Virus record (IMG/VR): IMGVR_UViG_2778261227_000013
Coordinates: 1-16,267 of that record
Length of the DNA: 16,267 bases
DNA from: a virus
Lineage: Duplodnaviria; Heunggongvirae; Uroviricota; Caudoviricetes
Strand: one strand, 5' to 3'
The first letter of the stretch is position 1, and each line of letters begins with the position of its first letter. The position numbers and the translations under genes were made by a program. This document shows, piece by piece, positions 2,521 through 16,267 of the stretch. The notes under the pieces were generated by a model. The model saw nothing but the letters and a program-made list of their open reading frames with translations. It was not told the DNA's origin and ran no database searches.

Positions 2521-2741
2521 CTACTAAAGCGCGCAATGCTCTCCCCAGCAGGCCTGCCCGCTACACAGAGCAGTTTTCATGCAAGTGCATGATAAAAGCC
2601 TATCAGAATCGGCAGTTTTCAACATAAACGCCCACTAGCTACAGAGTGCAATTTTTCGTCATCGGCAATATCAACAACTAAACGCATAAATCAGACAAAC
2701 TGCTACCCGGCTCAATTTTGAGCCGTCTTTTAATCAACGGG

Positions 2742-2921
2742 TTATCGCCGCAGCATGTCCGGTTTCTTCCACTGATACGGCCTCACATCATCATGCTGGT
2801 GGCGTTCCTGTTGCAGCACAACGGAAACAGGCGCTGAACACCTGTTAATTTTGCTTGCTGGTTGTTTGATTTCGGCAATGCTGCGGAGCATCTCCAGCAT
2901 ATCGGCTTCGGTGATGGTCAT
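2742..2921 (-). CDS. Possible small protein (59 aa), hypothetical
   Basis: ORF not in the supplied track (below its size cutoff). ATG at 2919-2921 with AAGGTG about 8 nt upstream; translation MTITEADMLEMLRSIAEIKQ...DMLRR; TAA at 2742-2744. Confidence 0.25.
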   Translation of the reverse strand: MTITEADMLEMLRSIAEIKQPASKINRCSAPVSVVLQQERHQHDDVRPYQWKKPDMLRR

Positions 2922-2952
2922 GATTTACACCTTAGGAAATCTTAGGGGCTGG

Positions 2953-3205
2953 TTGACACTTTCCGGCTTAGGACCTTAACAAATCTTAACATCGCAGGTT
3001 GACACACTTGACACTTTTTCGCGAAAAACCTTATCAAACCTTAGCATTTCTAAGCATGGCAACTTGACACTTTTCGCGATTTTTTCGGCTTTTTGACGTG
3101 GTAAATCTGGCGAAAGGCCAGTAATGGCGCGGCTTACAGCGAGGTTGACACTTTTTCGCGTTCAGAGTGTAAAGTGTCAACCTGGCAAGCTGCTCAACTT
3201 GACAC
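2953..3205. repeat. Array of seven TTGACAC motifs (six direct, one inverted), three extended as TTGACACTTTT(T)CGCG; candidate protein-binding or packaging-recognition array
   Basis: TTGACAC at 2953, 2999, 3008, 3064, 3145 and 3199; inverted GTGTCAA at 3174. A TTGACGTG variant lies at 3093. The array sits immediately downstream of the Nu1/TerS-like HTH gene. Confidence 0.6.
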
Positions 3206-3214
3206 TTTTTGATG

Positions 3215-3742
3215 TCATTGATGGTCTGATTTTTCCCATTCAGCCAGGGCGTTTAGCCCGGCTTCACTCCATGATTCCAGTTCATCGGGACAATCACCTG
3301 CAACATAGCAGAGTTCGCAACGCAGCATACGAATTGCCAGCCTGGCATTACCTCGCAAATTGTATTGTTCAAAGTAATGCTGCCCGTCGCAATCCTCAAG
3401 GCAGATAGCACCATCATCAAGAAAGTGCACTTCCCAGCCTAATTCCCCGGCTGCATCCTGCACACGCTGCTGTATGCCCTCGTCCGTTGCTGGCGCAGGA
3501 ATTTTACCGCCTCTGGCCTTAACTGCTTTCCAGAACTCGCCCCACGTCATTTCCAGCGTTCTCTCTGGCCACATTTCAGAAACTGTGTCTTTTCCCTGTG
3601 CTGGTGGGCTGTTCCGCTGCTCTGTCGCTTCCACATCGATTTTTTTACCGGACATGACCACTTCGCCTTTCTCGATCCAGTCGTAAACTGTCTGGCGGCT
3701 TACGCCTTTGTGTTTGGCATATTCTGCCTTACTCATCAGCAT
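3215..3742 (-). CDS. Nu1/small-terminase-like N-terminal HTH protein (175 aa); possible packaging-redirection (Rpp-like) protein
   Basis: N-terminal SKAEYAKHKGVSRQTVYDWIEKGEV resembles the winged-HTH of lambda Nu1-type small terminase subunits. AAGGGTGAG upstream of the ATG at 3742; 6-nt gap from the upstream gene. Confidence 0.6.
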   Translation of the reverse strand: MLMSKAEYAKHKGVSRQTVYDWIEKGEVVMSGKKIDVEATEQRNSPPAQGKDTVSEMWPERTLEMTWGEFWKAVKARGGKIPAPATDEGIQQRVQDAAGELGWEVHFLDDGAICLEDCDGQHYFEQYNLRGNARLAIRMLRCELCYVAGDCPDELESWSEAGLNALAEWEKSDHQ

Positions 3743-3748
3743 TATGAC

Positions 3749-4420
3749 TCACCCTTCTTTTTCCAGTTGAGCCAGCCGCCCGGATATTTCTTCCAGTTTT
3801 TCCAGGGCTGGCTTGCAGGCCGCATCAATAACGTCCCGGACCATTCCGGCAAGCTGTTCTTCTGCTGTCGGCGTTGTTACTTCCACGCCCGATGGTTTCC
3901 CGCCCTTATCCCAAACACCAAGCGGCACGAGCGCAACGTGATCGATAAGAAATGGCGTACCCTCAATAAAAAAATTGTCCTCGCCCATTACATCAGGAAC
4001 TTCTGCCCCACCTGAGGCACCACAAAACACAACCGACGGACTGGTGGATACCTCCCCTCGGGCTTTCTGGATGTAATCGATGATTTCCTGTCCGTAAATC
4101 CGGCATACGCCCCACACCTCGTCACCGCGAATATACGGCAACATGACGGTGCCAATAATGCGCGACCGTTCGCCCACGTCTTCAAGGGTTTTGCTTTCGG
4201 GATGGTCGATAATGACGGGTACTCCGGCGCAACGTTCCAGGAACTGCGGATTGAGATAAGTTTGCGGTGAACGCCAGACAAATTCTTTTTCTTCGGCGCG
4301 GTAGGCCATTCCGGTTCCTGTGATACGCAGGTTAACCAGCCACATGTTGGAAAACTGATAAGGCGACGGTAGCTGTCCGTCCCGAATCTGCTTCGCCGCC
4401 TCAATTTCTGTTAAAAGCAT
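3749..4420 (-). CDS. Hypothetical protein (223 aa)
   Basis: Long ORF in operon arrangement with the downstream HTH gene. No clear Shine-Dalgarno before the ATG at 4420, so the start is uncertain. An imperfect hairpin lies in the upstream intergenic region. Confidence 0.6.
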   Translation of the reverse strand: MLLTEIEAAKQIRDGQLPSPYQFSNMWLVNLRITGTGMAYRAEEKEFVWRSPQTYLNPQFLERCAGVPVIIDHPESKTLEDVGERSRIIGTVMLPYIRGDEVWGVCRIYGQEIIDYIQKARGEVSTSPSVVFCGASGGAEVPDVMGEDNFFIEGTPFLIDHVALVPLGVWDKGGKPSGVEVTTPTAEEQLAGMVRDVIDAACKPALEKLEEISGRLAQLEKEG

Positions 4421-4484
4421 AATGTTATCCGGTTATAAGCAATAAGCCCCGCCAAATCCGGCAGGGCTGAACTCAGCACGTTTT

Positions 4485-5063
4485 TCATGCCCCCGCGAGG
4501 CTTGCAGTGTTAATTTTGACCAGGCGACGGGGAGGGATTTTGAAAGCACTAAGCCAGTTATTCGGATCCCCCTGATATTCAGTAATCCGCCGTCCGGCTT
4601 CATCCATTCTTACGGTTTTACGCAAATAGCCCGGCGTATTTTCCACAGCCCACTGAACACTGTCTTTTGCAGCCTGGTAAATCTGATCTTCCAGCACCGC
4701 CAGCGTTGCAGAATCTGAAACGGAACGAATATCCACATCACTGAATTTTTTAGCCAGCTTCTGTGCACCAATTAATGCACGCTTGCGGTAATCCATCGAC
4801 TTTTCGCCAGCAAACGGGGCCGGAGCGCGACGCCCCATATTGCTGTATGCGGAATCCGCTTTGGCCTGGGCTTCTGCCAGTGAGGATTCATCTTCGACTG
4901 ACGCGACGATGTTTTGATTAGCGTTATCCTCTTTTATGAAATCCTGTGCGGGGATCGCATTCAGAATTTCGATAATCTCCTGCGGAGTGCTTCCCTGCGA
5001 CTCTGACAGAGCGTTAACCACCTCCATCAGTTTTAATCGCAAATCTTCTTTGCTTGCTGGCAT
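4485..5063 (-). CDS. Hypothetical protein (about 192 aa)
   Basis: The track ORF begins at a GTG at 5072. An ATG at 5063 preceded by GAGAGGTGG is the more likely start (MPASKEDLRLK...). Confidence 0.6.
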   Translation of the reverse strand: MPASKEDLRLKLMEVVNALSESQGSTPQEIIEILNAIPAQDFIKEDNANQNIVASVEDESSLAEAQAKADSAYSNMGRRAPAPFAGEKSMDYRKRALIGAQKLAKKFSDVDIRSVSDSATLAVLEDQIYQAAKDSVQWAVENTPGYLRKTVRMDEAGRRITEYQGDPNNWLSAFKIPPRRLVKINTASLAGA

Positions 5064-5102
5064 TTTTACCACCTCTCTTTTTTCACCAAAAAATCACGAC
5101 CA

Positions 5103-5276
5103 TCAGGCCGGACGTTCTACGGGATAAAGCGCCCGCTGCATTAAACGCCGGGCGACCTCATGAATGCTCGGAGCAATCCCCAGCGGAGAATTGCGGCGTT
5201 CCTCGTCCTGGATGCGCTGTAATGCTTCAATCTGATCACGAGCGAGTAAAACGGGTTTCACGCTGGCTTTTCTCAT
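5103..5276 (-). CDS. Small hypothetical protein (about 57 aa)
   Basis: AGGAG lies 8 nt upstream of the ATG at 5276 (MRKASVKPVLLARDQIEALQ...). The track's longer start at 5300 lacks a suitable ribosome-binding site. Confidence 0.5.
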   Translation of the reverse strand: MRKASVKPVLLARDQIEALQRIQDEERRNSPLGIAPSIHEVARRLMQRALYPVERPA

Positions 5277-5410
5277 AGTCATATCTCCTGAACAAAACAA
5301 TGGTTATGATTGCATAAACTGAAATGACGATCTACATCATTGCAATTTATGAAACGATAACGCATGATGATCGCGTTCTTCCCATTGACTTCAATCACCT
5401 GAAAAACAAA

Positions 5411-5472
5411 GCCCGCAACACTTCTGGCTGCGGGCTTTTTACTGGCACAAAAAAGCCGGGAAAAATCCCGGC
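5411..5472 (-). terminator. Tandem intrinsic-terminator-like hairpins downstream of the PerC-like gene
   Basis: GCCCGCA...TGCGGGC hairpin at 5411-5435 flanked by T/A runs on both sides. GCCGGG-aaaaat-CCCGGC hairpin at 5455-5472, followed on the minus strand by TTTTTT. Confidence 0.6.
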
Positions 5473-5477
5473 CTCCG

Positions 5478-5765
5478 TCACTGACTGCAATTTTTCGATC
5501 CAGGGTATTTCCTGAATGCCTTACCATTGGGCTGATGTAATCCCATCCCGGCATGTGCCCGGCTGATGGTTTCGCGCATCTCCCCGAAATTATCCTGCCT
5601 TGCTGGTGGGCGTGCTGCCTTGCGGATACATTCCGCGCGACGTTTTGCCGCCTGTTCCCGTGCCTTGTCATCATTCGCCAGCATGATGACCTCAGCCCAC
5701 CGCGCCGCCGCTCTCCGGTACAGACCACGCGCTTCCAGTGCTTCCGCTTTGCTGTCGTGAATCAT
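5478..5765 (-). CDS. PerC-like small transcriptional regulator (95 aa), tentative
   Basis: Translation MIHDSKAEALEARGLYRRAAARWAEVI... matches my recollection of the PerC-family N-terminal signature. ATGA overlap with the stop of the upstream ProQ/FinO gene. Confidence 0.55.
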   Translation of the reverse strand: MIHDSKAEALEARGLYRRAAARWAEVIMLANDDKAREQAAKRRAECIRKAARPPARQDNFGEMRETISRAHAGMGLHQPNGKAFRKYPGSKNCSQ

Positions 5766-6346
5766 GCGCCTGTTTTCTCCTTTGCTACCCGGCGCTGACG
5801 TTTGCGCTTCTCATTCAGCGCCACCAGCCGCGTTTCTGCGTCCTGTTGTTCCTGTGGTGTCACCTCGCCGCACGGCTGGCCTTTCAGGTCGTAGCGTACC
5901 CCACCAGCCATTAAGGCGCGGTAATAGCGCGGACACTGCGCATAAGATGCCAGCGTCGCACGTAATGCCCCTGGCCCGAATGCCAGCCCCCTGACGGCGA
6001 GATCCTGCATCAGGTCGTCGAATACCCCCACCTTTAGCGGCTTCGGTGCTTCCCGGCTGAATAATTCTGGCCACAACTCAGTGAGGCGGTTAACGCGTCT
6101 GCGGTTTTTTCGCTGCCGTTTGGTCATATGCCGCCACGGTGTCGCCCCTGTGGGCTTCTGCTGCGCTTTCTGGTTACCGGGCATCACTTTATGCGCCGAT
6201 GTGGTTTTATCCTGCTGCTGCTGCTGCGCCGCCTTCGTCGTTTTCTGCGGCGTGCCGTAAATGCCTTTCGGTTTTCTGTTAATGGTCAGCTTAGTCATGC
6301 TTTGCCCCATCGTTTTTACTGATTGTTTCATATCCGGTACTTTCAT
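5762..6346 (-). CDS. ProQ/FinO-domain RNA-binding protein (194 aa; start uncertain)
   Basis: Segment LTELWPELF...PLKVGVFDDL...LRATLASYAQCPRYYRALMAGGVRYDLKGQPCGEVT parallels the ProQ N-terminal FinO domain (PLKIGIFQDL...RVDLDGNPCGEL) as recalled. Basic, Q-rich N-terminus. No good ribbon-binding site before the first ATG. Confidence 0.75.
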   Translation of the reverse strand: MKVPDMKQSVKTMGQSMTKLTINRKPKGIYGTPQKTTKAAQQQQQDKTTSAHKVMPGNQKAQQKPTGATPWRHMTKRQRKNRRRVNRLTELWPELFSREAPKPLKVGVFDDLMQDLAVRGLAFGPGALRATLASYAQCPRYYRALMAGGVRYDLKGQPCGEVTPQEQQDAETRLVALNEKRKRQRRVAKEKTGA

Positions 6347-6351
6347 CTTCT

Positions 6352-6637
6352 GGGTAGAGGGGTAGACGGAGGGTAGATAACAAAAAATAGTCCTCTACCC
6401 ACTTAACTTAATGAAAAAAAACAACTTTCACACATTAGGTAGAGGGGTAGACCGTAAAATAGAAAAGTTTGAAACTTACTTTCTTACAATCTGTGTTTTC
6501 CTCTCGCTGTATAAAAAGTTTTTTGAGCGGGGATGTTGTCTACCCCTCTACCCACTTCTCTGAAAGCCTTGTGCTACGAGGGATTCAGCGGGTAGACAAT
6601 AAAAAATCACCATCTACCCTGTGTCTACCCATCTACC
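6352..6637. repeat. Iteron array GGGTAGA(G/C/T) in direct and inverted copies with A-rich spacers; putative replication origin
   Basis: Direct copies at 6352, 6360, 6371, 6438, 6445 and 6590. Inverted copies at 6393, 6538, 6546, 6612, 6623 and 6631. A-rich spacers between clusters. Located immediately downstream of the primase/helicase gene. Confidence 0.75.
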
Positions 6638-6654
6638 TGTTACGGGTATTACTC

Positions 6655-8403
6655 TTATAAAAATTCCTCGGTTCTCTCCGTTTGTATAACGTTGGTTTGT
6701 ATTCGTCCTTTAAAACCTCTTGTCAGGTATTCAGCCCCATATTCTCTTGCTGCTGACTTCATGGCCTTACCAAAATCACCGACACTTAATATTTCTTCTT
6801 CCCCCATATACTCCATAAAGGCGAGATATAGTCTGTACAGGCTTGTACGCGGATTAAGATCAGTTAATCTCTTACCGCCTCCCATCATCATCCCATGCGG
6901 TTCATCAAGAAATGCAAGCGCCGCACATAACCCAATGACAGGATCAGTTTCCTGTTTTATTTTCAGAGCTTCGGCACCGTCGCGCTGCTCCAACAATAAT
7001 TCCCGTGCTTTTTCTGGATCGGAAAAGTTAGCCAGTAATCGACGAATAATGACAGGTATTTCCGCCGCTATCTTTTGCGGTAACTCTTTATCCTTTTCGG
7101 TCTCCCTTACAATATTATCGAACCGAAAAATTACACGTCGACGCGCAACGCCTCCGGCCCGTTCGGTGAATGTCATCGGCACGTTATTTGTTGCCAGCAC
7201 GACGGACCTGATAATTGTTGTGAAACGCTTTTCATATTTCGGGTTAATTTCAACTGGATCTCCACCCGTTATTTTTTTGATGCCGGATCCTTCACCTGTA
7301 TATTTCGGCTGGTCTGCCAGGACAATAAGACGACTTCCGACAACCTGCGCACGCCCGCCAGCATCATCAAGCGATGTCATTTCAGCGCTTACCGTGTTCT
7401 GTTTCCCTGCCAGAAGGGTGGCTATGTGCGTGATTGTGCTCTTGCCGCTCCCGCCTTCCCCTGTGGCCTCAATAAACATCTGCCAGTCGTACCGGTTCGC
7501 CATAATCATGTACAGCGCGGCGCATATACGCATCATCTTTCGCGGGTCTTTTCCTGCGGCGTGATCAAGCCATTTATGAAAGTTTGGCGCGTTGTCGCGG
7601 ATGTTCTCCCCTGGTACTGGTGGCGTGTACTCAATGCCGTTATGCGTGGTGATCCAGTTATCCGGCGAGTGCGGGGAAAATTCGCCAGTTTTCATGTCAA
7701 GCACGCCATTAGAGAACGGCAATAAATCACCTGACGGTTCCCCCATTGGCCTGGCCATAACTTTTAAAGCATCCACTGCATTACTTATTGCTCTCCGACT
7801 AAACGATGTTCCGTTTTCTTCGTAAATAGCCACCATTTCACGACTAAGATCCAGTGTGCTTACCGGAACCCAAAAATCATCGCGCCAGACGTGGACAACC
7901 TCACTCTCCTGATTCATTGCTACATCCTGAAATCGTTCAGCTAAAAGTTTTGCCCTTTGGCTGTCCGCCATTCTGGAAAGAGATATTTTGTGTTTTTTCT
8001 CGGTCCTTCCTGACAGAATTTCTCCGCGCTCAGCCTGTTCGCGGATCCGTTGCAGGTAGTCGCGCCAGTTCTCCGGTTCCTGGTCGGTGATGCCTTTGTA
8101 TAATTTCGCCTCCTGTACGCCAGCCAGCGCCAGCTTTTCAGCGATAGCATTGATCTGGATTGGCTCGATCTCCCCCGCGAGATAGACACGCGCAAAGCGG
8201 CGTTTCTCGTCAATAATGCGGATATTCGCCAGGTCTGCCAGTTGCTTTGGTCCCAGATAAACAGGTGGCACGTTATCGCAGTGTTTTCGTCCTTCGCTTT
8301 CAATCCAGTGTTGGGCATGGGCGTAAGCATCCGTCCCGGCAAAAATGATTACCTCAGTGAATTTATCCTTCGGCTGATATTTCAAACTCGGTGCGTTTTT
8401 CAC
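6655..8403 (-). CDS. P4-type primase/helicase-like replication protein with D5-like NTPase (582 aa)
   Basis: Walker A GEGGSGKST and Walker B-like LIVLAD within a long ORF, followed directly by the iteron array. Family assignment is from recalled resemblance to phage/plasmid P4-family primase C-terminal regions. Start overlaps the upstream gene by 4 nt. Confidence 0.8.
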   Translation of the reverse strand: MKNAPSLKYQPKDKFTEVIIFAGTDAYAHAQHWIESEGRKHCDNVPPVYLGPKQLADLANIRIIDEKRRFARVYLAGEIEPIQINAIAEKLALAGVQEAKLYKGITDQEPENWRDYLQRIREQAERGEILSGRTEKKHKISLSRMADSQRAKLLAERFQDVAMNQESEVVHVWRDDFWVPVSTLDLSREMVAIYEENGTSFSRRAISNAVDALKVMARPMGEPSGDLLPFSNGVLDMKTGEFSPHSPDNWITTHNGIEYTPPVPGENIRDNAPNFHKWLDHAAGKDPRKMMRICAALYMIMANRYDWQMFIEATGEGGSGKSTITHIATLLAGKQNTVSAEMTSLDDAGGRAQVVGSRLIVLADQPKYTGEGSGIKKITGGDPVEINPKYEKRFTTIIRSVVLATNNVPMTFTERAGGVARRRVIFRFDNIVRETEKDKELPQKIAAEIPVIIRRLLANFSDPEKARELLLEQRDGAEALKIKQETDPVIGLCAALAFLDEPHGMMMGGGKRLTDLNPRTSLYRLYLAFMEYMGEEEILSVGDFGKAMKSAAREYGAEYLTRGFKGRIQTNVIQTERTEEFL

Positions 8404-8690
8404 TTCTTACCTCCCGCAACCAACATTGCCCGGATTTTTTTTATATTCGTGGCTGCACGTCTTGCCACTGCCTGTTGTTTGTTTTCCACCAGAATAAAAT
8501 CACGCTCAAACTGACGGCGCGGCATTACGCAGTCATATTCGTAAGCCTCACGGCGGTAGGTGATATTGCCTGGCGTAACGTGACGAATAACCACTCGTCC
8601 CCCACTTCTGGTGTCGCGGTAAATATCTCCGTGTCTGATTTCAGGCCGAGAGAGACCGCTGGCAGTAAAGCCAGAATTTTTCTTTTTCAT
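8400..8690 (-). CDS. Hypothetical protein (96 aa)
   Basis: AGGAAAA upstream of the ATG at 8690; ATGA-type 4-nt overlap with the primase gene. Confidence 0.6.
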   Translation of the reverse strand: MKKKNSGFTASGLSRPEIRHGDIYRDTRSGGRVVIRHVTPGNITYRREAYEYDCVMPRRQFERDFILVENKQQAVARRAATNIKKIRAMLVAGGKK

Positions 8691-8694
8691 GGTT

Positions 8695-8895
8695 TTATTT
8701 TCCTGTCAGCAGTTCCGGTTTTATTTCCGCACGAATACAAAGTTCAGAAAAAAATTCAGGAGAACCAACAATCTCATTACTTTTCAGTCGGCATTGTGAT
8801 TTCACTTTCCCTTTATCCAGGTAAACCAGTACGCGTCCGGTGAAATCATCTGGCACATTAAGCACTACGGGTACATGCGCTTCATGATTATGCAT
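8695..8895 (-). CDS. Hypothetical small protein (66 aa), paralog-like to the N-terminus of the 9114..9479 product
   Basis: GGAGGA upstream of the ATG at 8895. Begins MHN and carries FTGRVLVYLDKGKVKS, similar to FTGQLLVNVENGRVVS in the 9114..9479 product. Confidence 0.6.
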   Translation of the reverse strand: MHNHEAHVPVVLNVPDDFTGRVLVYLDKGKVKSQCRLKSNEIVGSPEFFSELCIRAEIKPELLTGK

Positions 8896-9121
8896 GGCTT
8901 ACATCCTCCGTGAATTTTCTTCTGTAACGCGTCTCTGCCACATATTCCGCATAGTCCGACGCAATACTAAGAATCATTTCACCCTCTGACTTGTAGCCAC
9001 TGGTATTGATAAGAAAATATGCAGCTTTCATCATGTCAGCAACGCTCAACAATGCGCCCGCTGCATCTTCCGGTGCGCCATCAAATTCCCGTTTCAGGGA
9101 ATTAAAACGATCATCACGCAT
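8888..9121 (-). CDS. Hypothetical small protein (77 aa)
   Basis: AGGGGGG upstream of the ATG at 9121; 8-nt overlaps with both neighbouring genes. Confidence 0.6.
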   Translation of the reverse strand: MRDDRFNSLKREFDGAPEDAAGALLSVADMMKAAYFLINTSGYKSEGEMILSIASDYAEYVAETRYRRKFTEDVSHA

Positions 9122-9479
9122 GTTTACCCCCCTGAATGACCTGATAACCGCAACTGGTCAGCAATTCCATAAATTCCGGCAATGTGCCGAAACAGTAATC
9201 ATCACACAGACGTTCGCGGGATACTTCAACGCCGTTTTCGTAGTGACTCACCATACACCCGGTAAAACGCAGATCATCATCGTGATGGCACGTTGACGGC
9301 TTAATCAGTCGCGCACGCTCCGCCAGTGCCAGGAATGCTTCAACGCTTCCGGCAATTGCACCATCCGGCAGGTGATAATTACTTACTACGCGTCCATTCT
9401 CTACATTGACCAGTAGCTGCCCGGTAAATTTCTCATCAAACTGAATGCTGTTAAGTTCAGAAATAGCCGAATTATGCAT
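9114..9479 (-). CDS. Hypothetical protein (about 121 aa)
   Basis: AGGAGGTG upstream of the ATG at 9479 (MHNSAISELN...). The track's longer ORF start at 9497 is less likely. Confidence 0.6.
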   Translation of the reverse strand: MHNSAISELNSIQFDEKFTGQLLVNVENGRVVSNYHLPDGAIAGSVEAFLALAERARLIKPSTCHHDDDLRFTGCMVSHYENGVEVSRERLCDDYCFGTLPEFMELLTSCGYQVIQGGKHA

Positions 9480-9696
9480 GGTGCACCTCCTGCACATCAG
9501 CCATGATAATTTTTCCGGCCTTATCCAGTGCCTGATCGGCTTTTAGCTGCACAAATGCTAAATAATGGGAGATGCATTCTGATTCTCTGACTGCGTGTTT
9601 ATGCGCCACACCAGCGATAGCTGAAATCTCAATAAGTGAATCCATCAGCGTTTTGATAGCGTCTACCGCTGCATCAGGCCATGTTACATTACACAT
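9472..9696 (-). CDS. Hypothetical small protein (74 aa)
   Basis: AGGAGGTGGAG upstream of the ATG at 9696; 8-nt ATGTGTAA overlap with the upstream gene. Confidence 0.6.
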   Translation of the reverse strand: MCNVTWPDAAVDAIKTLMDSLIEISAIAGVAHKHAVRESECISHYLAFVQLKADQALDKAGKIIMADVQEVHHA

Positions 9697-10054
9697 GCTC
9701 CACCTCCTGGCGAATACGGGCAGCGAATACCATCACGCAGCCATCAGGGGATTGCTGGCGTGCTTCCTGTTCGCTGGTGGCCTCGATGTGAATTACGCGC
9801 GGTTGTGCTGTGCTCAGGGCGATAAAACGCCAGATAAAATTGTTCTCGCATTTCTGAATAAACAGCGTGTTTTCTTCGCGCCCTTTCCATGTTGCCGAGA
9901 TATAGCCCATGTCATTGAGCATCTCGCAGGCATCAACCAGCGTATCAGCAGCTACGTGTACAGTGTTTTTACCGTCAGCTATGCAATCACGGTGCACCGC
10001 CAGGAAGGTGTATATAAATTTAGGGTGAGTTTGGGTATGCTGTGTTCCAGCCAT
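9689..10054 (-). CDS. Hypothetical protein (121 aa), first gene of the leftward operon
   Basis: ATG at 10054 preceded by GAGGT. It is the C-terminal part of the 510-aa track ORF, whose upstream portion is judged non-coding or shadow. Confidence 0.6.
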   Translation of the reverse strand: MAGTQHTQTHPKFIYTFLAVHRDCIADGKNTVHVAADTLVDACEMLNDMGYISATWKGREENTLFIQKCENNFIWRFIALSTAQPRVIHIEATSEQEARQQSPDGCVMVFAARIRQEVEHV

Positions 10055-10143
10055 AATCGTTACCTCATTTAACGGTTTGGTTAGACGCCCCGCTACTGCC
10101 GCAAACAGTTCGGGGCGTTGTCGTTTACATCCTCTTACTGAGG

Positions 10144-10219
10144 TGTGATTTAAATTAAATTTAACTGAATCACAGGTCAAGTATTTTTTGTGATTCTTTT
10201 TTGTGTATACTGAATCACA
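10144..10219. promoter_or_regulatory. Divergent promoter/operator region with two 31-bp palindromes TGTGATT-N17-AATCACA
   Basis: Palindrome 1 at 10144-10174 and palindrome 2 at 10189-10219. Palindrome 2 encloses a TATACT -10-like hexamer (10206-10211) for the rightward gene. A leftward TTGACC -35-like hexamer (complement of 10175-10180) lies beside palindrome 1. Confidence 0.6.
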
Positions 10220-10241
10220 TCTTTTGTTTAGGAGAATGCAC

Positions 10242-10547
10242 ATGGCAAAAAACACTATCAACGACAAATCAAAACAGATTTCAATTCGTATCCCACATGA
10301 TGCTTTTGAAGGCATGGAATCCGTAAAACTGGACGGTGAAAGCAACGCCGGATTCATAGTAACCGCCATGCGCGGTGAGATCGCCCGCCGCCAGGCAGAA
10401 GGAAGCGGAGAAAATCCCCTGGTTTCTTCGCTCGATGCGCTGGCGCAGGTGGAAAAAATCGGAGTCAAAGCTGCCGAGGAGATCGGGCAGCTCGTCACCG
10501 TCGCACGTGAAGAACTCCAGCGCCGCAAGGCCAAAGAATCAGAATAA
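10242..10547 (+). CDS. Ribbon-helix-helix-like (Arc/MetJ/CopG-type) DNA-binding regulator (101 aa), tentative
   Basis: AGGAG 8 nt upstream of the ATG at 10242. N-terminal KQISIRIPHDAFEGMESV...NAGFIVTAMRGEIARRQ has the strand-helix-helix pattern; the C-terminus is charged and coiled-coil-like. Confidence 0.6.
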   Translation: MAKNTINDKSKQISIRIPHDAFEGMESVKLDGESNAGFIVTAMRGEIARRQAEGSGENPLVSSLDALAQVEKIGVKAAEEIGQLVTVAREELQRRKAKESE

Positions 10548-10604
10548 TAACTATCATCGCCGTGGTGTGAGGAACTCCGGCGCATTGCTTTACAGGTACA
10601 CAGA

Positions 10605-10799
10605 ATGACCAACAAAGAATCAACCAATACACCATCACCGGCACGGAAAAGACGGCGCAGAAAGATAGAGCATGAATCAGAAAGATTCGCGCCATGTGCT
10701 TTTGCCCTTGAGCAATTCCTTAAAGAGTACAGGCGCACAAAAATGGGATCGCATACCTGGAAAACATCGCGGCATGGCAATGTTAAAGAGCATGAATAG
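10605..10799 (+). CDS. Possible small basic protein (64 aa), hypothetical
   Basis: ORF downstream of and co-oriented with the RHH-like gene; weak AGGT upstream. Composition is plausible (K/R/E-rich), whereas the opposite-strand frame here is Cys/Ser-rich. Confidence 0.3.
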   Translation: MTNKESTNTPSPARKRRRRKIEHESERFAPCAFALEQFLKEYRRTKMGSHTWKTSRHGNVKEHE

Positions 10800-10829
10800 C
10801 CCACCAGCAAGCCAGCACACTGATCACAT

Positions 10830-11221
10830 TGCCCACCAGCCGCAAATCTGGCATTGTTGGCAATGTGTTCAAGTGTGTAGCTTTCCCACTGGTGGCCCTC
10901 TGCAGTCGCCTTTGTTTTATCCAGAACGAAATCAGACATCAGATTGATCAGCACCTGGTGACCTGACAAAATCGCATCAGTCGCGCCACCAGCAAAATTT
11001 TTTGCTTTCCGGACAGCGTGGCTAACGGCATTTTGCAGCAAAATATTCTGCATTTCTGGCGTACTGTAGTAACAGTGATCAGCGCCTTCACTCTGTGCGA
11101 CCACAACGCTATAATCTGCCTCGTAGACAGTAAGCAATATGGCGCAGTAGGCTATTCGTTCACAAAGGCGCTCCGGCAACGGGGCGCTTTCTCTTTTTGT
11201 AACGGTCAGAGCGTTACACAT
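10830..11221 (-). CDS. Candidate gene with unresolved 3' end (5' part of the 510-aa track ORF); possibly a remnant
   Basis: ATG at 11221 preceded by GGAGGA, with an 8-nt ATGTGTAA overlap to the antirepressor gene stop. The first roughly 130 codons look protein-like, but there is no in-frame stop until 9689. The 3' coordinate is approximate. Confidence 0.3.
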
Positions 11222-12014
11222 GGCTGTTTTCCTCCATGCGACGGGCTAACCAACGCTGCGAAAGACGAATTAATTCAGCCTTCCGCTGGTGGTAGTCCTG
11301 GCCTAACTCAATCAGCGTGATATTGCTCTGCTCAAGGTAAGAAAGGTGCTCAAGCTGCAACGTGCTCATGTGGTCGCGTGGTTCGCCTGTAATGCCGTTC
11401 GCCAGTGCCCACTGTTTTGCAGTCATGCCACCCAGCACGATACGCGCCAGCATGCTCGCTTCCGTGGTGTAGTGGTGCTGGAGTGTGTTTTTACCCAGTT
11501 CAGCCCGGTACGCCTCCAGCGCGGCACACATTGGCTTAAAGTAGCTGGCAACTGTGATACGGGCTTTCAGTTCCCGGCGTAACGCTGCGGAACGAACAGG
11601 CGCAACCTTGTGTAGCTCCTCCTCGCATTTGATAAAGTACTGGCGAACGGCGCGGCCCTGTTCGGTACGTTCGACCATCGCCAGTTCTTTCGCCATGTTC
11701 ACTGTGATGATGTACTCAAGAGCGGTTTGCTGGCGAGATTTTGCGCTCACCGGATCGGGTCGGCTCAAATATTCAACAACCTCATAATCCACGCCTTCCG
11801 TGAACCCGTATTCTTCAATGCGCCCCTTGATCCACGAACGGAAAACGCGCCCTACACCTAACGCCTTATGTAACGCTCTGGCGCTAACAATAGTGGTTTC
11901 ACTCCCGCCAATAACGCCGGAAATAATCGGGATAATTTCGCCGAAATTTTGCAGATTCTGGTTTTCAGTCCGAACGAAGCCCCGCCCCTGTACGGGCGTT
12001 TTTGGAAATTTCAT
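11214..12014 (-). CDS. Phage antirepressor-like protein (AntA N-terminal / KilAC-type C-terminal domains), 266 aa
   Basis: N-terminal ...TIVSARALHKALGVGRVFRSWIKGRIEEYGFTEGVDYEV... resembles the AntA/Bro-N type antirepressor signature as recalled. AGGAG 7 nt upstream of the ATG at 12014. Confidence 0.7.
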   Translation of the reverse strand: MKFPKTPVQGRGFVRTENQNLQNFGEIIPIISGVIGGSETTIVSARALHKALGVGRVFRSWIKGRIEEYGFTEGVDYEVVEYLSRPDPVSAKSRQQTALEYIITVNMAKELAMVERTEQGRAVRQYFIKCEEELHKVAPVRSAALRRELKARITVASYFKPMCAALEAYRAELGKNTLQHHYTTEASMLARIVLGGMTAKQWALANGITGEPRDHMSTLQLEHLSYLEQSNITLIELGQDYHQRKAELIRLSQRWLARRMEENSHV

Positions 12015-12091
12015 AAAAACTCCTGCTATCGAATTAAGTTACTTTTATTTGCTGGTGGATAGCTGGGGGCAATAGCCCCGTAGCCATTTAA

Positions 12092-12289
12092 TCAGGTAGC
12101 TGTTCCGCGTGATTCCGCAATACGCTGATTAATCCACTCGTCAATTTCACTCTCAACGAAAGCAATAGCTCGCGAGCCAATTTTAACTGATGCAGGAAAT
12201 TTACCTTGCCCCATAAGGCGATAAATCCATGCCTTGCTATATCCAGTTCTACGCTGAACTTCTGTTAAACGAATAAGCGTATTTGACAT
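12092..12289 (-). CDS. alpA: AlpA-family phage transcriptional regulator (65 aa)
   Basis: MSNTLIRLTEVQRRTGYSKAWIYRLMGQGKFPASVKIGSRAIAFVESEIDEWI matches the AlpA/MerR-like HTH family signature (YRL...GKFP..K.G.RA.A..ESE...WI). GAGGT upstream of the ATG at 12289. Confidence 0.85.
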   Translation of the reverse strand: MSNTLIRLTEVQRRTGYSKAWIYRLMGQGKFPASVKIGSRAIAFVESEIDEWINQRIAESRGTAT

Positions 12290-12358
12290 ATATTTACCTC
12301 ATAACGTCTACTCAATTTGACGAGGTAATCATGGCACAGAAATAACGAATATTTTCAT

Positions 12359-12502
12359 ACCCTCAGGCCTAATGGTTACCGGAAGGAAATTAACCCTAAG
12401 GGTGATGGTAATCGGGAGGAAATCTACCCTAAGGGTGATGGTAAAATTGACGGGGAAGATAAAAAAATACCCTCAGGGTAACAGTAAATCATCCTCAGGG
12501 TA
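12359..12502. promoter_or_regulatory. Upstream region of alpA with five ACCCT(A/C)AGGG palindromic boxes, including a 31-bp tandem duplication
   Basis: Boxes at 12359, 12393, 12426, 12469 and 12492. Copies at 12381-12411 and 12414-12444 are near-identical (GGA[A/G]GGAAAT[T/C][A/T]ACCCTAAGGGTGATGGTAA). Confidence 0.55.
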
Positions 12503-12516
12503 TGCGGTATGGTGCG

Positions 12517-13314
12517 TTAATCCGGCTTTGCGTTCTTTTGGCTGTTGTCTCGGTTAATAGGGCAGGCAGTCCTCTCTATGAGCGTTGCAAGTGCATTACT
12601 TGCCCCCCACTGCTTAAGCTCCCTGGTTATCGCTTCTTGATTTCCCCTGGTGGCAAAATCATTTTCTGGATCGTAATTGGCCCACTCTCTGTTTCTAATC
12701 TCAATAGCCTTAGCTAATGGGTCTTTATCCCAGTATTTATATAAGTGTATCGGGCGCTCTTGCTCTAACTGCTCTATCCTTGCCCTTAACTCTGCGTTTT
12801 CTTTTTCCAGCATTGCGATTTGGGATAATAAATCATCCTCTGTACGCAACTCTTTCTTTTCAATATCGCGTCCTTGTGCCTCGTCATTTTCAGAAGAGTT
12901 AGCGCCTTCCAGCTTCGTTAACGCGTCAAGGACATCGGGAAAAATTGCGAAAATTTCACCCCTTATAAATCCAATGTTCTCAAATTCGGGATCTTCCCAA
13001 TAACCGGACACCAGAAAACCATTTTCATCCCTCTCACCAGGTAAACAACCACGTTTCCGAACCGCATTCAGATTTCTATAAAGAACATCATAATCAAATT
13101 CATCCCGATACGGGTTACAAAAAGATTCCAACAGCTTAAATTCATTTACTGTGTACAGGCGGATATGTTCTCCGCTTATTCTCCTGAGTATCCAAGTTAT
13201 GACATCTGAAACATCATAATCATCACCAGCGACCTTAAGCACGACCTCAAGAAATTCACGTAAAGAAATAAAATCTTTTTTGTATTCGTTTAATTCGGCA
13301 TGAATATCAATCAT
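12517..13314 (-). CDS. Hypothetical protein (about 265 aa) with central coiled-coil; AT-rich cargo-like gene between int and alpA
   Basis: The track ORF starts at a GTG at 13320; an ATG at 13314 preceded by GAGGTG is more likely. Coiled-coil-like segment LSQIAMLEKENAELRARIEQLEQE. Visibly AT-rich relative to its neighbours. Confidence 0.65.
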   Translation of the reverse strand: MIDIHAELNEYKKDFISLREFLEVVLKVAGDDYDVSDVITWILRRISGEHIRLYTVNEFKLLESFCNPYRDEFDYDVLYRNLNAVRKRGCLPGERDENGFLVSGYWEDPEFENIGFIRGEIFAIFPDVLDALTKLEGANSSENDEAQGRDIEKKELRTEDDLLSQIAMLEKENAELRARIEQLEQERPIHLYKYWDKDPLAKAIEIRNREWANYDPENDFATRGNQEAITRELKQWGASNALATLIERTACPINRDNSQKNAKPD

Positions 13315-13442
13315 ACGCACACCTCAGCGTCCTCTACTGTAGTGGCTGTACCAGTCCGTCGAGGTGTACGGATTTTCGGGAGCGACCCTAGACACAGCCT
13401 TTTCTTTCGTCGCTCAAAGTCTACTACTGTATACGCAACCAG

Positions 13443-14657
13443 TCATCCACATTTTCCGAACTTGCCATGCACCACGTTACCGCCATGTTCGAGCGAATCC
13501 ATATAGTCGGCGTACCACTGGAGCATCTCGCGCCGCCCGTCCAGATATTGCGCATGATTGTACGTGCCACGAATTGAGTTCTTATCAACGTGTGCAAGCT
13601 GCGTTTCTATCCACGCGGTGTTATAGCCCTGCTCATGTAAAATCGTGCTCATGGTGTGCCGGAATCCATGACCAGTAACCTTTCCGTTATAGCCGATGCG
13701 TTTAAATACTTGGTTTATGCTAGCCTCGCTCATTGTTTTCCTTGGATCATTACGGCCGGGAAACATAAGCGGATAATTACCAGTTAATTCTTTAATCTGC
13801 CCAATAAGAGAAAGAGCCTGCTTAGACAAAGGCACCACATGAGGGCGACGCATTTTCATCCGTGAAGCAGGTATCTCCCAGATAGCCTTGTTGAGATCGA
13901 TTTCATCCCATAATGCACCGCGCAGTTCGCCAGTTCGCAAACCAGTGATAATCAGTAGACGAGCCGCCATAACAACCAATGCACTTCCTGAGTAACTGGA
14001 CAATGCCTTGAAAAAATCAGGCAATTCTTTGGCTGTGAGGAAAGGATAATGATTAGATTCATGGCCTTGCATCGCGCTAGTAAGATCTGGGGCAGGGTTA
14101 TACTCTGCGCGACCAGTGACTATTGCATAGCGGAAAACTTCCCCGCACCGCTGCCTCACTTTTTTGGCTTTTTCTGTAGCACCGCGCCCCTCGATGCGTC
14201 GCAGCACATTCAGAAGTTCAAGTGGTTTGATTTCGGCAATTGGTTTTTTGCCAATGTAAGGGAACACATCTTTGTTGAAGGCTTCGAGGATATCTGAAGC
14301 ATAACCAGCAGACCATTTTTTTAATTTGCTGCTGTGCCACTCAAGGGCAATATCTTTGAAGGTATTGTTTAACTGCGTTTCCCGGGCAATCTTTTCCTCT
14401 CGTTTCGCTTCCATCGGATCGATACCCCCAGCGATACCCCTTTTAGCTTCTTCACGTTTTGCACGAGCATCAGCCAAGGTAACTTCAGGATACACACCTA
14501 GTGCTAACAGCTTCTCTTTACCAGCTACACGATATTTAAAGCGCCAGTATTTTCCTCCACTAGGTTTTACCAGGAGATACAGACCACCACCATCAGCCAG
14601 CTTGTAAGCCTTCTCTTTTGGCTTGGCAGTGTCTATTTGACGGGCATTGAGTTTCAC
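13443..14657 (-). CDS. int: Tyrosine recombinase / phage integrase (P4-type, with N-terminal arm-binding domain), 404 aa
   Basis: N-terminus AKPKEKAYKLADGGGLYLLVKPSGGKYWRFKY is typical of P4-like integrases. C-terminal catalytic region contains HGFRHT and a terminal Y (GTYNHAQY). GTG start at 14657 with GGAGGT upstream. Directly adjacent to the tRNA 3' end. Confidence 0.93.
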   Translation of the reverse strand: MKLNARQIDTAKPKEKAYKLADGGGLYLLVKPSGGKYWRFKYRVAGKEKLLALGVYPEVTLADARAKREEAKRGIAGGIDPMEAKREEKIARETQLNNTFKDIALEWHSSKLKKWSAGYASDILEAFNKDVFPYIGKKPIAEIKPLELLNVLRRIEGRGATEKAKKVRQRCGEVFRYAIVTGRAEYNPAPDLTSAMQGHESNHYPFLTAKELPDFFKALSSYSGSALVVMAARLLIITGLRTGELRGALWDEIDLNKAIWEIPASRMKMRRPHVVPLSKQALSLIGQIKELTGNYPLMFPGRNDPRKTMSEASINQVFKRIGYNGKVTGHGFRHTMSTILHEQGYNTAWIETQLAHVDKNSIRGTYNHAQYLDGRREMLQWYADYMDSLEHGGNVVHGKFGKCG

Positions 14658-14823
14658 TTGGGGGTACCTCCACTAAACCGAACAGCAAATACCCCCAAAA
14701 GTACCCCCAATTGACTGTAGATTTTGGGGTACTTAAGTAGACATCAAAAGACTAAAAGGGGCGCTAACATGCGGATTATAAGAGGTTTTTAAATACTTGA
14801 GTAGACTTGGGGAGACGTTAGAA
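14658..14823. other. att-proximal region between integrase and tRNA with candidate arm-type repeats
   Basis: Direct repeats TACTT(A/G)AGTAGAC at 14730-14742 and 14794-14806. GGGGTAC at 14661 and 14726, with inverted GTACCCC at 14701. Confidence 0.45.
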
Positions 14824-14899
14824 TGGTGCCGATAATAGGAGTCGAACCTACGACCTTCGCATTACGAATGCGCTGCTCTACCAACTGAGCTATATCGGC
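14824..14899 (-). tRNA. thrW: tRNA-Thr (anticodon CGU)
   Basis: The reverse complement reads GCCGATATAGCTCAGTTGGTAGAGCAGCGCATTCGTAATGCGAAGGTCGTAGGTTCGACTCCTATTATCGGCACCA: a 76-nt cloverleaf-compatible sequence with a CGT anticodon and encoded CCA end. Confidence 0.96.
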
Positions 14900-15013
14900 C
14901 CTGAAAGGACATGTTCACGAACGTGAATCACGGTGGACAAGGTTAAAACTAACCGGGCGATGCGTCAATGGCCTTGTGAATCAAATGGCTACTTTTGCAT
15001 CACCCGGTTTTAT

Positions 15014-16267
15014 TTACGCACGAATGGTGTAATCACCAATGCCGATCCACTTGTAAGTGGTCAGTGCTTCCAGCCCCATTGGGCCACGCGCGTGGAGTTT
15101 TTGTGTGCTTACCGCCACTTCCGCACCCAGACCAAACTGGCCGCCGTCGGTAAAACGCGTAGAGGCGTTAACGTAAACAGCGGACGAATCCACTTCGTTA
15201 ACAAAACGCTGGGCGTTGCGCATATCGCGGGTCAGGATCGCATCGGAGTGTTGTGTGCCGTGTTCACGAATATGGGCGATGGCATCGTCAAGATCGCTGA
15301 CGATTTTGACGTTCAAATCTAATGACAGAAACTCATCGTCATACTCTTCGGCTTTAACAGCAACCACCTTCGCAGGGCCTGCCTGCAACTGCGCCAGTGC
15401 AGCTGCATCTGCGTGTAATGTCACGCCGCTTTCCGCCATTTGTTTGCTTAATGCGGGCAGGAAGCTATCGGCGATGTTTTTATTCACCAGCAACGTTTCA
15501 ACCGTATTACATGTGCTCGGACGCTGAGTTTTCGCGTTGACGATCACTTTTAATGCTTCAGCGATCTCTACACTTTCATCAACGTAAATATGGCATACGC
15601 CTATACCACCTGTGATCACCGGGATTGTCGACTGTTCACGGCACAGTTTATGCAAACCAGCGCCACCACGCGGGATCAGCATGTCGATGTATTTATCCAT
15701 ACGCAGCATTTCACTGACCAGCGCACGGTCAGGATTATCAATCGCCTGCACGGCACCCGCCGGTAAGCCGCAGGATTTCAGGGCGTCCTGAATCACCGCC
15801 ACCGTTGCAGCGTTAGTGCGACACGTTTCTTTGCCACCGCGCAGGATCACCGCATTACCGGTTTTCAGGCACAGCGAAGCGACATCAACCGTCACGTTCG
15901 GGCGCGCTTCATAAATCACGCCAATAACCCCCAGCGGTACGCGACGACGCTCAAGACGCAGGCCGCTGTCCAGTACGCTGCCATCGATTACCTGCCCCAC
16001 CGGATCGGCGAGGTTACACACCTGGCGCACATCATCGGCAATGCCTTTCAGCCGTGCGGGCGTCAGTGCCAGACGGTCAAGCATCGCTTCGCCAAGGCCA
16101 TTGGCACGCGCGTCAGCAACATCCTGGGCGTTAGCGTTGAGGATGATTTCGCTTTGTGCTTCCAGTTCATCGGCGATTTTTTCCAGCACGCGATTTTTTT
16201 CGCGGCTGGAGAGTTGCGCTAATTTATACGAGGCTTGCTTCGCGGCAATGCCCATTTGTTCCAGCAT
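15014..16267 (-). CDS. proA: Gamma-glutamyl phosphate reductase (glutamate-5-semialdehyde dehydrogenase)
   Basis: Complete 417-aa ORF with ATG at 16265-16267 and TAA at 15014-15016. Translation [40 protein letters not shown]... matches enterobacterial ProA as recalled. Confidence 0.96.

Follow-up and report, generated by a model that had tools for sequence, protein, structure and literature searches.

A candidate ribbon-helix-helix immunity switch antisense within an Eta-like open frame of Gram-negative phage-inducible chromosomal islands

How phage-inducible chromosomal islands (PICIs) of Gram-negative bacteria are held silent is a question left by their founding paper, which described a global repressor as 'unclear' and the reliance on an activator, AlpA, compared with the repressor of Gram-positive PICIs, as 'a mystery' (PMC6092414). 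The question is raised in concrete form by a stretch of 16,267 nucleotides assigned to the Caudoviricetes (IMG/VR record IMGVR_UViG_2778261227_000013, positions 1 to 16,267; hereafter the window, meaning the whole stretch analyzed). In the window, two copies of a long palindrome lie between a small rightward gene and a leftward replication operon, and an earlier note had proposed that the small gene encodes a ribbon-helix-helix (RHH) repressor acting at these palindromes. The encoded protein belongs to the YlcI/YnfO family, mentioned in later searchable literature only as an accessory 'prophage-associated protein' (PMC13612085). The analysis presented here suggests that the region is probably a PICI immunity switch in which RHH dimers occupy four operator sites, with a swappable cassette lying antisense within an open frame that resembles Eta of satellite P4.

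An exact pattern search for TGTGATT-N17-AATCACA identified two matches in the window, at 10144-10174 (O1) and 10189-10219 (O2), which lie 45 bp apart start to start as the earlier note had stated, and none further even allowing two mismatches. In 200 dinucleotide-preserving shuffles, matches averaged 0.11 and never reached two. The right arms of the palindromes extend to an 11-nt direct repeat, ACTGAATCACA. Five AATCACA heptads were present in the window, including four inside the same 76 bp; a wider heptad regulon in the island was rejected, the single extra copy at 8795 being consistent with chance. The heptads of the control region are as follows.

10144-10150: site 1, TGTGATT, left arm of O1, at the predicted leftward start site; -98 from the ATG of the RHH gene, a conserved position
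10168-10174: site 2, AATCACA, right arm of O1, directly downstream of the leftward -35
10189-10195: site 3, TGTGATT, left arm of O2, directly downstream of the rightward T-rich -35
10213-10219: site 4, AATCACA, right arm of O2, at the predicted rightward start site

In the window, the sites are spaced 24, 21, and 24 bp centre to centre with gaps of 14-17 bp. The functional units appear better described as four separate sites than as a pair of palindromes, because the corresponding sites read -> -> <- <- in one class of related loci (QxKNI, below) and include direct repeats in the experimentally studied island EcCICFT073. Their orientations fit the predicted binding of one symmetric RHH dimer per site, with either orientation tolerated.

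The four sites are interleaved with two predicted promoters arranged back to back.

10152-10180, minus strand: leftward promoter (PLE-like), with -35 TTGACC at 10180-10175, a 17-nt spacer, and -10 TAATTT at 10157-10152
10184-10211, plus strand: rightward promoter of the RHH gene, with a weak T-rich -35 at 10184-10189, a 16-nt spacer, and -10 TATACT at 10206-10211

An A-tract lies directly upstream of the leftward promoter (10188-10181 on the minus strand). A simple promoter scan reported neither promoter, each having one weak hexamer and scoring under the 9-of-12 cut-off. Their conservation was examined in a comparison set of 24 distinct loci plus EcCICFT073 (25 in total) from approximately ten genera, including Escherichia, Enterobacter, Erwinia, Xenorhabdus, Photorhabdus, Serratia, Edwardsiella, Klebsiella, and Phytobacter, with one contig deposited as Martelella. 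A leftward TTGACx-17/18-TAnnnT (8-10 of 12 matches) was found at the same positions in 21 of the 25 loci, and a rightward -10 (TATAAT, TATACT, or TATATT) at -36/-35 in 16 of them, accompanied only by a T-rich -35. The second palindrome encloses the rightward -10 as previously described (TATACT at 10206-10211 inside 10189-10219). The first had been placed merely beside the leftward promoter and in fact encloses its spacer, -10, and start site. Sites 2 and 1 fall just past the leftward -35 and at its start point, respectively, and sites 3 and 4 occupy the mirror-image positions on the rightward promoter. Because each promoter has one site past its -35 and one at its start, occupancy should, judging by position, block both.

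The candidate for the protein that reads these sites is encoded immediately to the right of them.

10242-10547, plus strand: RHH-type regulator gene, 101 aa, YlcI/YnfO family (NCBI annotation), with Shine-Dalgarno sequence AGGAGA at 10230-10235
10272-10292, plus strand: predicted DNA-reading beta-strand KQISIRI, codons 11-17, which defines the specificity class
10416-10541, plus strand: long C-terminal helix, codons 59-100, presumed oligomerization domain, conserved across specificity classes

The gene starts at ATG 10242 and not at the GTG at 10203. Its product matched NCBIfam NF041551 (YlcI_YnfO_N, a 42-residue N-terminal model) over residues 9-50 with 65.3 bits against a cut-off of 30, and this family carries no assigned function. 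The AlphaFold model consists of an extended N-terminus, helices at residues 19-28 and 35-55, and a long helix at 59-100, with a predicted local distance difference test (pLDDT) score of 84-90 in the RHH part. It displays the N-terminal beta-strand plus two helices (beta-alpha-alpha) in approximately 45 residues that characterize the RHH superfamily, and RHH domains were the best structural matches of the modeled 101-aa protein at low root-mean-square deviation, in line with the RHH-like product predicted by the earlier note. On the model, the protein is best filed under the RHH fold, outside every curated RHH sequence family, and it would be expected to bind DNA as dimers and to act as a repressor. 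Non-significant hhalign alignments place QISIRIPHD against QFNLRWPRE of Arc and HFNFRMPME of Mnt, both from phage P22. In that register, residues 12 and 14 (variable) and 16 (an invariant Arg) stand opposite Gln9, Asn11, and Arg13 of Arc, which we take to be its base-contacting residues. Arg16 and Pro18 were invariant in the homolog alignment. Homologs of the RHH protein were not detected by tblastn in 50,697 phage records, P4 included. As a separate observation, a conserved LAQVEKIGVKAAEEI in the C-terminal helix (10440-10500, residues ~67-86), including the invariant Gly74, resembles a helix-hairpin-helix motif; a profile search matched the helix-hairpin-helix domain of Hef over this region (E = 0.01), and AlphaFold models one continuous helix there.

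A search for relatives identified 215 homologs, conserved apart from residues 11-15, which form discrete classes. The geometry of the control region was fixed and ungapped in all 25 loci. Sites of 7-11 bp lie at approximately -98, -74, -53, and -29 relative to the ATG; sites 2 and 3 flank a GTCAAG block, and sites 3 and 4 flank a TATAAT-like hexamer. Within this invariant frame the sequence of the sites tracked the class of the N-terminal strand, and at least seven classes were distinguished.

Strand class KQISI or RQISI (window): site TGTGATT
Strand class QLTTV or QLFTV: site GTGTTTC
Strand class QSLTA: site TGTAAG
Strand class QQLNA: site TGGTATTCA
Strand class QQINA: site GGGATTCA
Strand class QxKNI: site of the GTGTGTATTTA type
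Strand class QMTTI: site of the GAGATATAC type
Strand class QALKA (EcCICFT073): site GTGGCCCAC

Site identity was 88% for same-class pairs compared to 42% for different-class pairs, a gap reached in none of 5000 label permutations. Sites were also more conserved than spacers, both within a class (88% vs. 78%) and in same-class comparisons across genera (91-98% vs. 62-68%). Site identity and the identity of the neighboring sequence dissociated in both directions: a Serratia locus (L025) shares 98% identity with the window at the sites, 67% in the rest of the RHH protein, and 23% in the left gene, whereas an Escherichia coli locus (L026) shares 95% in the rest of the RHH protein, 97% in the left gene, and 36% at the sites. 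The comparison with E. coli FDAARGOS_403 (L035) resembles a natural swap experiment, with identical AlpA (65/65) and 267-aa protein (265/265), nearly identical Int (403/404), Ant (254/266), and Icd-like proteins, and RHH residues 44-101 differing at a single position, while the first 43 RHH residues and each of the four sites differ. Sliding identity located the replaced segment at ~10074-10373 (300 bp) against this strain and at ~10044/10074-10313 against a further E. coli locus (L034), thereby defining a cassette.

10074-10373, no strand assigned: variable 'immunity cassette' holding a leader hairpin, the four sites, both promoters, and RHH codons 1-44, exchanged as a unit between islands that are nearly identical elsewhere

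Specificity would reside in residues 11-15 of the N-terminal strand. RHH proteins act as obligate dimers and insert their paired strands into the major groove; for the window protein, this mode draws indirect support from the covariation of strand residues with the sites and from the 9-bp palindrome in each EcCICFT073 site. The sites covary with the predicted DNA-reading strand and with nothing else nearby, and the pairing of RHH protein and palindromes put forward in the earlier note is thus upheld, with DNA binding itself predicted.

The second unusual property of the locus is that the entire switch lies inside an open frame on the opposite strand.

9689-11221, minus strand: Eta-like open frame, 510 aa, whose ATG at 11221 overlaps the stop codon of the AntA-family gene (Ant); antisense to a 64-aa open reading frame (ORF), the RHH gene, and the operators
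9689-10054, minus strand: Icd-like/Kil-like gene, 121 aa, nested in the Eta-like frame and opening the leftward operon (NF033153, E = 6e-23)

A GGAGG lies 9 nt upstream of ATG 11221, and the frame contains the leftward promoter and continues in frame into the Icd/Kil-like gene. Across the RHH gene, the Eta-like frame had zero stops in 24/24 loci, compared to averages of 3.2 and 5.9 in the other minus frames. Across the intergenic region it had a mean of 0.67 stops and was stop-free in 19/24 loci, compared to 5.7 and 6.0 stops and 0/24 loci for the others, and over the 200 nt beyond the RHH gene it was stop-free in 18/24. One of the other minus frames was stop-free across the RHH gene in two of the 24 loci, and otherwise neither was so in any of the three regions. 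The loci in which the Icd-like ATG lies in the open frame are precisely the 19 whose intergenic part is stop-free. Frame arithmetic places the wobble positions of the Eta-like and RHH frames together, and the per-locus chance of zero antisense stops in the RHH gene, estimated from its own codon usage, was 0.001-0.26. These counts indicate that the Eta-like frame is selectively maintained open. The 'intergenic' region and the whole RHH gene sit inside this conserved open frame, in a layout homologous to P4 eta/kil. Family matches of the frame start at residue 378, around and within the Icd-like gene. The possibility that the minus strand, instead of the RHH gene, is the coding one was rejected, as the plus-strand gene has family, fold, and covariation support and the frame matches families only from that residue.

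The same layout was identified in EcCICFT073 (NC_004431.1, ~1377930-1388650), where the order is int, alpA, a 428-aa open frame, the opposite-strand YlcI/YnfO gene, the Icd-like gene, and primase. The 428-aa frame starts 53 nt past alpA, and the other two frames contain 28 and 19 stops over the same stretch. The RHH protein of this island has only 59 aa (L037 9474-9653; 1380473-1380652), owing to an in-frame deletion of the long helix (...GEIKRRQ|RRKAKEQE). Its sites 1 and 2 are direct repeats, and each site holds a 9-bp palindrome, GTGGnCCAC. A 2018 study reported that AlpA activates the downstream genes of EcCICFT073, including an 'ORF3' fusion (PMC6092414), and ORF3 may be the Eta-like frame judging by gene order. 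The truncated protein may be a crippled repressor, which is perhaps why none was noticed there.

A switch operating in two states is proposed from these arrangements. At rest, RHH protein made from its own weak promoter would fill the four 7-bp sites, and their occupancy would shut the leftward promoter of the operon running from the Kil/Icd-like gene to the primase while limiting synthesis of the repressor itself; the long C-terminal helix may link dimers across sites. Strand and sites would move as one cassette of 240-300 bp, with at least seven immunity types as the outcome. On induction, the helper phage would trigger alpA, and the alpA-ant transcript would run on into the Eta-like frame, by homology with EcCICFT073 and P4. 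Ribosomes translating this transcript across the operators and the RHH gene would exclude Rho, and read-through would carry transcription into the replication operon irrespective of the repressor. Being antisense to the RHH mRNA, the transcript would also converge on the RHH promoter, leaving less repressor and locking in the induced state. Read-through and its consequences are suggested by analogy with P4, and suppression of Rho-dependent termination through translation of the frame draws indirect support from the selective lack of stops. By homology with EcCICFT073, AlpA of the window is the presumed helper-induced activator and the presumed source of the read-through transcription. The earlier note regarded a dedicated RHH repressor as notable given that satellites of this kind usually rely on AlpA-type activation. 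That contrast holds in so far as AlpA is the activator and the repressor was 'unclear' (PMC6092414), and it weakens in that the window also carries AlpA, which points to dual control by AlpA and RHH rather than an alternative to AlpA.

Several other readings of the sites have been considered. The repeats could be recognized by another factor (AlpA, Ant, the Icd/Kil-like protein, the primase through origin iterons, or host CRP) with the RHH gene merely adjacent, which is very improbable. TGTGA and TCACA are the half-site cores of CRP and the window heptads contain them, but CRP needs TGTGA-N6-TCACA compared to the 21 nt found within and 16 nt between the palindromes, and the other site classes lack these cores; CRP was therefore rejected. 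AlpA is a DNA-binding activator of such islands and PHROGs calls the Icd-like family a 'transcriptional repressor', although the latter label probably traces to the obsolete 'cI gene product (AA 1-137)' ORF of P4. AlpA, Ant, Int, the Icd-like protein, and primase were all rejected as site readers: the natural swaps change the sites while AlpA stays identical and Int, Ant, and the Icd-like protein nearly so, as in FDAARGOS_403, and the same sites stand beside a D5_N primase in the window and a DUF927 primase in L025. It would be similarly surprising if the palindromes acted as RNA hairpins and covaried with the N-terminus by hitch-hiking in a recombining cassette. The 7-10 nt arms could pair, the non-site DNA of the cassette also tracks the class, and P4 controls the homologous position via RNA structure. 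Against this, site orientation varies (-> <- -> <- in most classes, -> -> <- <- in QxKNI, and direct repeats in EcCICFT073) and leaves no common hairpin, the sites are more conserved within classes than the intervening DNA, whose 15-17 nt 'loops' vary freely, and the palindromic EcCICFT073 sites are as expected for a symmetric dimer.

If the RHH protein is the reader, it may still not be a simple repressor: its effect could be repression at one promoter and stimulation at the other, in the manner of P22 Mnt at Pant and Pmnt, or it could only autoregulate while read-through from AlpA controls the operon. This arrangement is unlikely, although it draws on the asymmetry of the promoters, the leftward one having a near-consensus -35 and an A-tract and the rightward one a good -10 without a real -35, as is typical of activator-dependent promoters, and on the asymmetric logic of this kind in P22 immI. 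AlpA over-expression alone induces EcCICFT073 (PMC6092414), although the protein of that island, devoid of the C-terminal helix, is perhaps unrepresentative of the full-length module, and the mirror-image placement of sites on both promoters argues for occlusion of both. The long minus-strand frame could in turn be a by-product of codon bias in an ordinary divergent-promoter region, which appears improbable. An antisense frame that shares wobble positions with a gene is the one most often open by chance, and this reading also accommodates the composition of the antisense translation and the interrupted loci described below. It does not explain why the AT-rich, promoter-bearing intergenic part is stop-free in 19 loci and in none for either other frame, with the Kil-like ATG in frame in the same 19. 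The frame is also open across at least six operator classes, including AT-rich Xenorhabdus and Photorhabdus loci (expected probability 0.001-0.006 for the gene alone), its start overlaps or closely follows the upstream gene, and P4 has a homologous nested arrangement with demonstrated function.

The preferred reading of four RHH-occupied sites in a maintained antisense frame must also accommodate observations that weigh against it. Regarding the sites, the 24-bp centre-to-centre spacings are out of helical phase and are longer, to our knowledge, than in any RHH operator; a convincing -35 is lacking from the rightward promoter; and the non-site DNA of the cassette follows the strand class as well (78% vs. 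43%), such that, with the strand codons only ~50 bp from site 4, part of the covariation reflects physical linkage. Regarding the protein, the Pfam RHH families fell below threshold, with PSK_trans_fac as sole hit (16.6 bits vs. a cut-off of 28.3), PDB searches by phmmer and profile yielded no RHH, and hhalign gave E = 0.003 with a probability of only 11% against P22 Arc and a probability of 1% against Mnt. The EcCICFT073 copy without the C-terminal helix indicates that the module may be dispensable or defective in the only island studied by experiment. Regarding the frame, the translation opposite the RHH gene is rich in Ser, Ala, Arg, and Cys, lacks the composition of a folded protein, and has no family match, and five of the 24 loci have an intergenic stop in it.

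The wider gene content indicates that the window is an EcCIMP1/EcCICFT073-type Gram-negative PICI adjoining tRNA-Thr. The tRNA-Thr gene (14824-14899) and proA adjoin the island in the window annotation, and the flanks of EcCIMP1 have been described (PMC11773190), with the window displaying the same gene set and proA-side location. As in other Gram-negative PICIs, int, alpA, and primase share orientation, the element spans ~10-15 kb with a specific attachment site, and a phage structural and lysis set is lacking. The minus-strand order is int, a 267-aa gene, alpA, and the AntA-family gene, followed past two plus-strand genes by the Icd-like gene, beyond which the leftward operon encodes small ORFs, DUF4222, the D5_N primase, ProQ/FinO, PerC, DUF2213, and others.

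13443-14657, minus strand: int
12092-12289, minus strand: AlpA-family regulator (Pfam PF05930, E = 2.4e-19)
11214-12014, minus strand: AntA-family gene, upstream of the Eta-like frame and overlapping its start
10605-10799, plus strand: 64-aa ORF, phrog_21027, function unknown, 3' of the RHH gene and antisense within the Eta-like frame
6655-8403, minus strand: D5_N/DUF5906 primase-helicase, main cargo of the leftward operon

The 64-aa ORF was found in only some related loci. The switch-containing stretch is 99.9% identical to E. coli TUM9757, and the switch region matched in 822 of 5,426 complete E. coli genomes (~15%), Nissle 1917 included. An Rfam int-alpA RNA (RF02996, 45.5 bits, above the gathering score) was identified between int and the 267-aa gene at 13331-13398 on the minus strand. 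The island of E. coli ETEC1747 (L034; NZ_CP122722.1, 1116000-1130500) is related, lacks int and alpA, and lies inside a type I-E CRISPR-cas operon, with Cas5 fragments on either side and an integrase arm-domain remnant at one edge.

Within the cassette, the leader of the leftward transcript contains a conserved RNA-like element.

10085-10118, no strand assigned: GC-rich hairpin of the leftward 5' leader, lying between site 1 and the start codon of the Kil-like gene

This hairpin was kept in 16/16 aligned loci with compensatory changes (e.g., CG in six and GC in five at one pair), and an invariant TCTAACCA follows it on the minus strand. It fits the plus strand slightly better, judged by G-U pairs (5 vs. 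0), with a T-rich tract after it on that strand in every locus. It resembles a rightward-facing terminator and could just as well form a stem in the 5' leader of the leftward mRNA; inspection by eye revealed no convincing rightward promoter upstream of it.

Chi sites (GCTGGTGG) were abundant in the window, with eleven in 16.3 kb compared to 0.36 expected from shuffles, none of 200 of which reached eleven. They occur at 2795, 3600, 5602, 9773, 11285, and 12051 on the plus strand and at 5821, 5901, 10801, 10833, and 10986 on the minus strand. The E. coli chromosome averages approximately one Chi per 4.5 kb, against which the window has a roughly threefold excess. A minus-strand Chi 3' of the RHH gene is conserved in Enterobacter, Serratia, and Klebsiella islands, and the sites at 9773 (plus) and 10801-10986 (minus) bracket the variable cassette, presumably oriented for recognition by RecBCD on leaving it. 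The flanking Chi could favor cassette replacement or protect replicating island DNA. A 17-nt direct repeat is also present (GTGAAGAACTCCAGCGC and GTGAGGAACTCCGGCGC), with one copy at the 3' coding end of the RHH gene (10507-10523) and the other in the spacer that precedes the 64-aa ORF (10567-10583), and may be a duplication remnant or a deletion substrate.

Taken together, a broader synthesis is put forward tentatively, as a possibility that falls short of being probable: YlcI/YnfO RHH proteins may be the master repressors of a large group of Gram-negative PICIs with at least seven interchangeable immunity types, their gene and operators lying antisense in a translated Eta-like frame whose AlpA-driven transcript bypasses the repressor and collides with its gene, and Chi sites facing the cassette from either side may promote swapping. 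The protein, sites, and residues nominated here would provide the missing repressor function, and the truncation in EcCICFT073 could explain why the module was overlooked. If correct, immunity types would define which islands cross-repress and would bear on the coexistence or interference of satellites in one cell. The locus would further represent a switch based on convergent transcription, kept across Enterobacterales, in which sense and antisense reading overlap completely over more than 100 codons. It would extend the eta/kil principle of P4 to an overlapped sequence that is an entire protein-coding gene of the opposite strand, a natural case of dual-strand coding constraint. RHH repressors at divergent promoters, heptad recognition, and the nested genes of P4 are already known. 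According to the searchable literature, the putative function of YlcI/YnfO, the candidate Gram-negative PICI repressor, and the cassette-like immunity types are new, as is the complete antisense overlap of a repressor gene and its operators with a selectively maintained, putatively translated frame.

The proposed switch combines features of several known systems. P22 Mnt consists of an RHH domain and a C-terminal oligomerization helix, an architecture also predicted for the window protein, and the strand motif QISIRIP is in register with QFNLRWP of Arc and HFNFRMP of Mnt in the absence of significant sequence homology (hhalign probability 1-11%). As in P22 immI, a small RHH repressor gene faces away from the operon and operators overlap back-to-back promoters (P22 Pmnt/Pant record). 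The P22 operators are single 21-23 bp sites in contrast to the four sites over 76 bp in the window, P22 has no overlapping antisense frame, and its operon encodes an antirepressor rather than replication functions. In the case of omega (ParB of pSM19035), one RHH dimer binds per non-palindromic heptad WATCACW, arranged directly or inverted and overlapping promoters (PMC9499535). AATCACA of the window fits WATCACW exactly, whereas the omega heptads are contiguous in arrays of 7-10 and those of the window are separated by 14-17 bp. Compared at the fold level, omega is without the long C-terminal helix and also serves plasmid partition. The divergence of the repressor gene from an excision and replication operon is shared with Stl/Rpr of the Staphylococcus aureus pathogenicity islands (SaPIs) among Gram-positive PICIs (PMC6092414). 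Stl is a large helix-turn-helix protein inactivated by helper-phage proteins, unlike the 101-aa RHH candidate accompanied by an AlpA activator, for which a helper-encoded antirepressor is not known. In the immI region of phage P1 (c4 RNA - icd - ant), a small Icd-type protein is the first translated gene of the immunity-controlled operon, with transcription beyond it coupled to its translation. The window has an Icd-like domain in common with it and differs in that C4 antisense RNA was absent from the window by Rfam search.

The closest parallel is satellite P4, where a frame at 8171-8821 contains the eta ATG at 8761 (197 aa, abutting the vis stop) and the nested kil ATG at 8365 (65 aa). As summarized from Forti et al. 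(1999) in PMC10111431, a constitutive promoter (PLE) lies inside eta, its transcript is terminated via the CI and seqA RNA sites, Kil is a truncated Eta, and Eta translation from an upstream promoter prevents termination. In both elements an AlpA/Vis-type gene is followed by a long frame starting beside it, holding the replication-operon promoter, and ending as a nested Kil/Icd-like protein, after which small ORFs and primase follow. The long frame starts in close association with the gene upstream of it in all three elements, at the Ant stop in the window, 53 nt past the alpA stop in EcCICFT073, and at the vis stop in P4. The Icd-like N-terminus of the window aligned with P4 Kil over 27 aa only (48% identity, E = 1e-4), and the match was better in related islands, extending over 54 aa in L023 (E = 7e-11). 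The window frame is longer (510 aa vs. 197 aa for P4 Eta) and no Ash domain was found in it. The Pfam 'Ash protein family' (PF10554) represents what the eta frame encodes across the P4 seqA/CI RNA region (P4 8171-8761; residues 313-406 of a long ORF in the E. coli FHI_NMBU_10 locus, L028), and both this and the PHROG repressor annotation may mislead. C4/CI or isrK/seqA RNAs were not detected in the window at the Rfam gathering threshold, nor at E <= 10 over 9600-11300, with P4 and L028 as positive controls for these RNAs and the Ash domain; in P4, Rfam placed C4 and isrK inside the eta frame. The slot of the P4 CI RNA is instead occupied by a protein repressor gene and operators on the opposite strand inside the frame, the RHH protein having no match in P4, and the promoter equivalent to the constitutive PLE is bracketed by operator sites. 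In L028, the RHH/operator cassette is followed by isrK (seqA-like) and C4 (CI-like) RNAs at 1081-1168 and 1190-1266 before the Icd-like gene. The presence of both devices in this locus suggests that protein and RNA immunity devices can be stacked.

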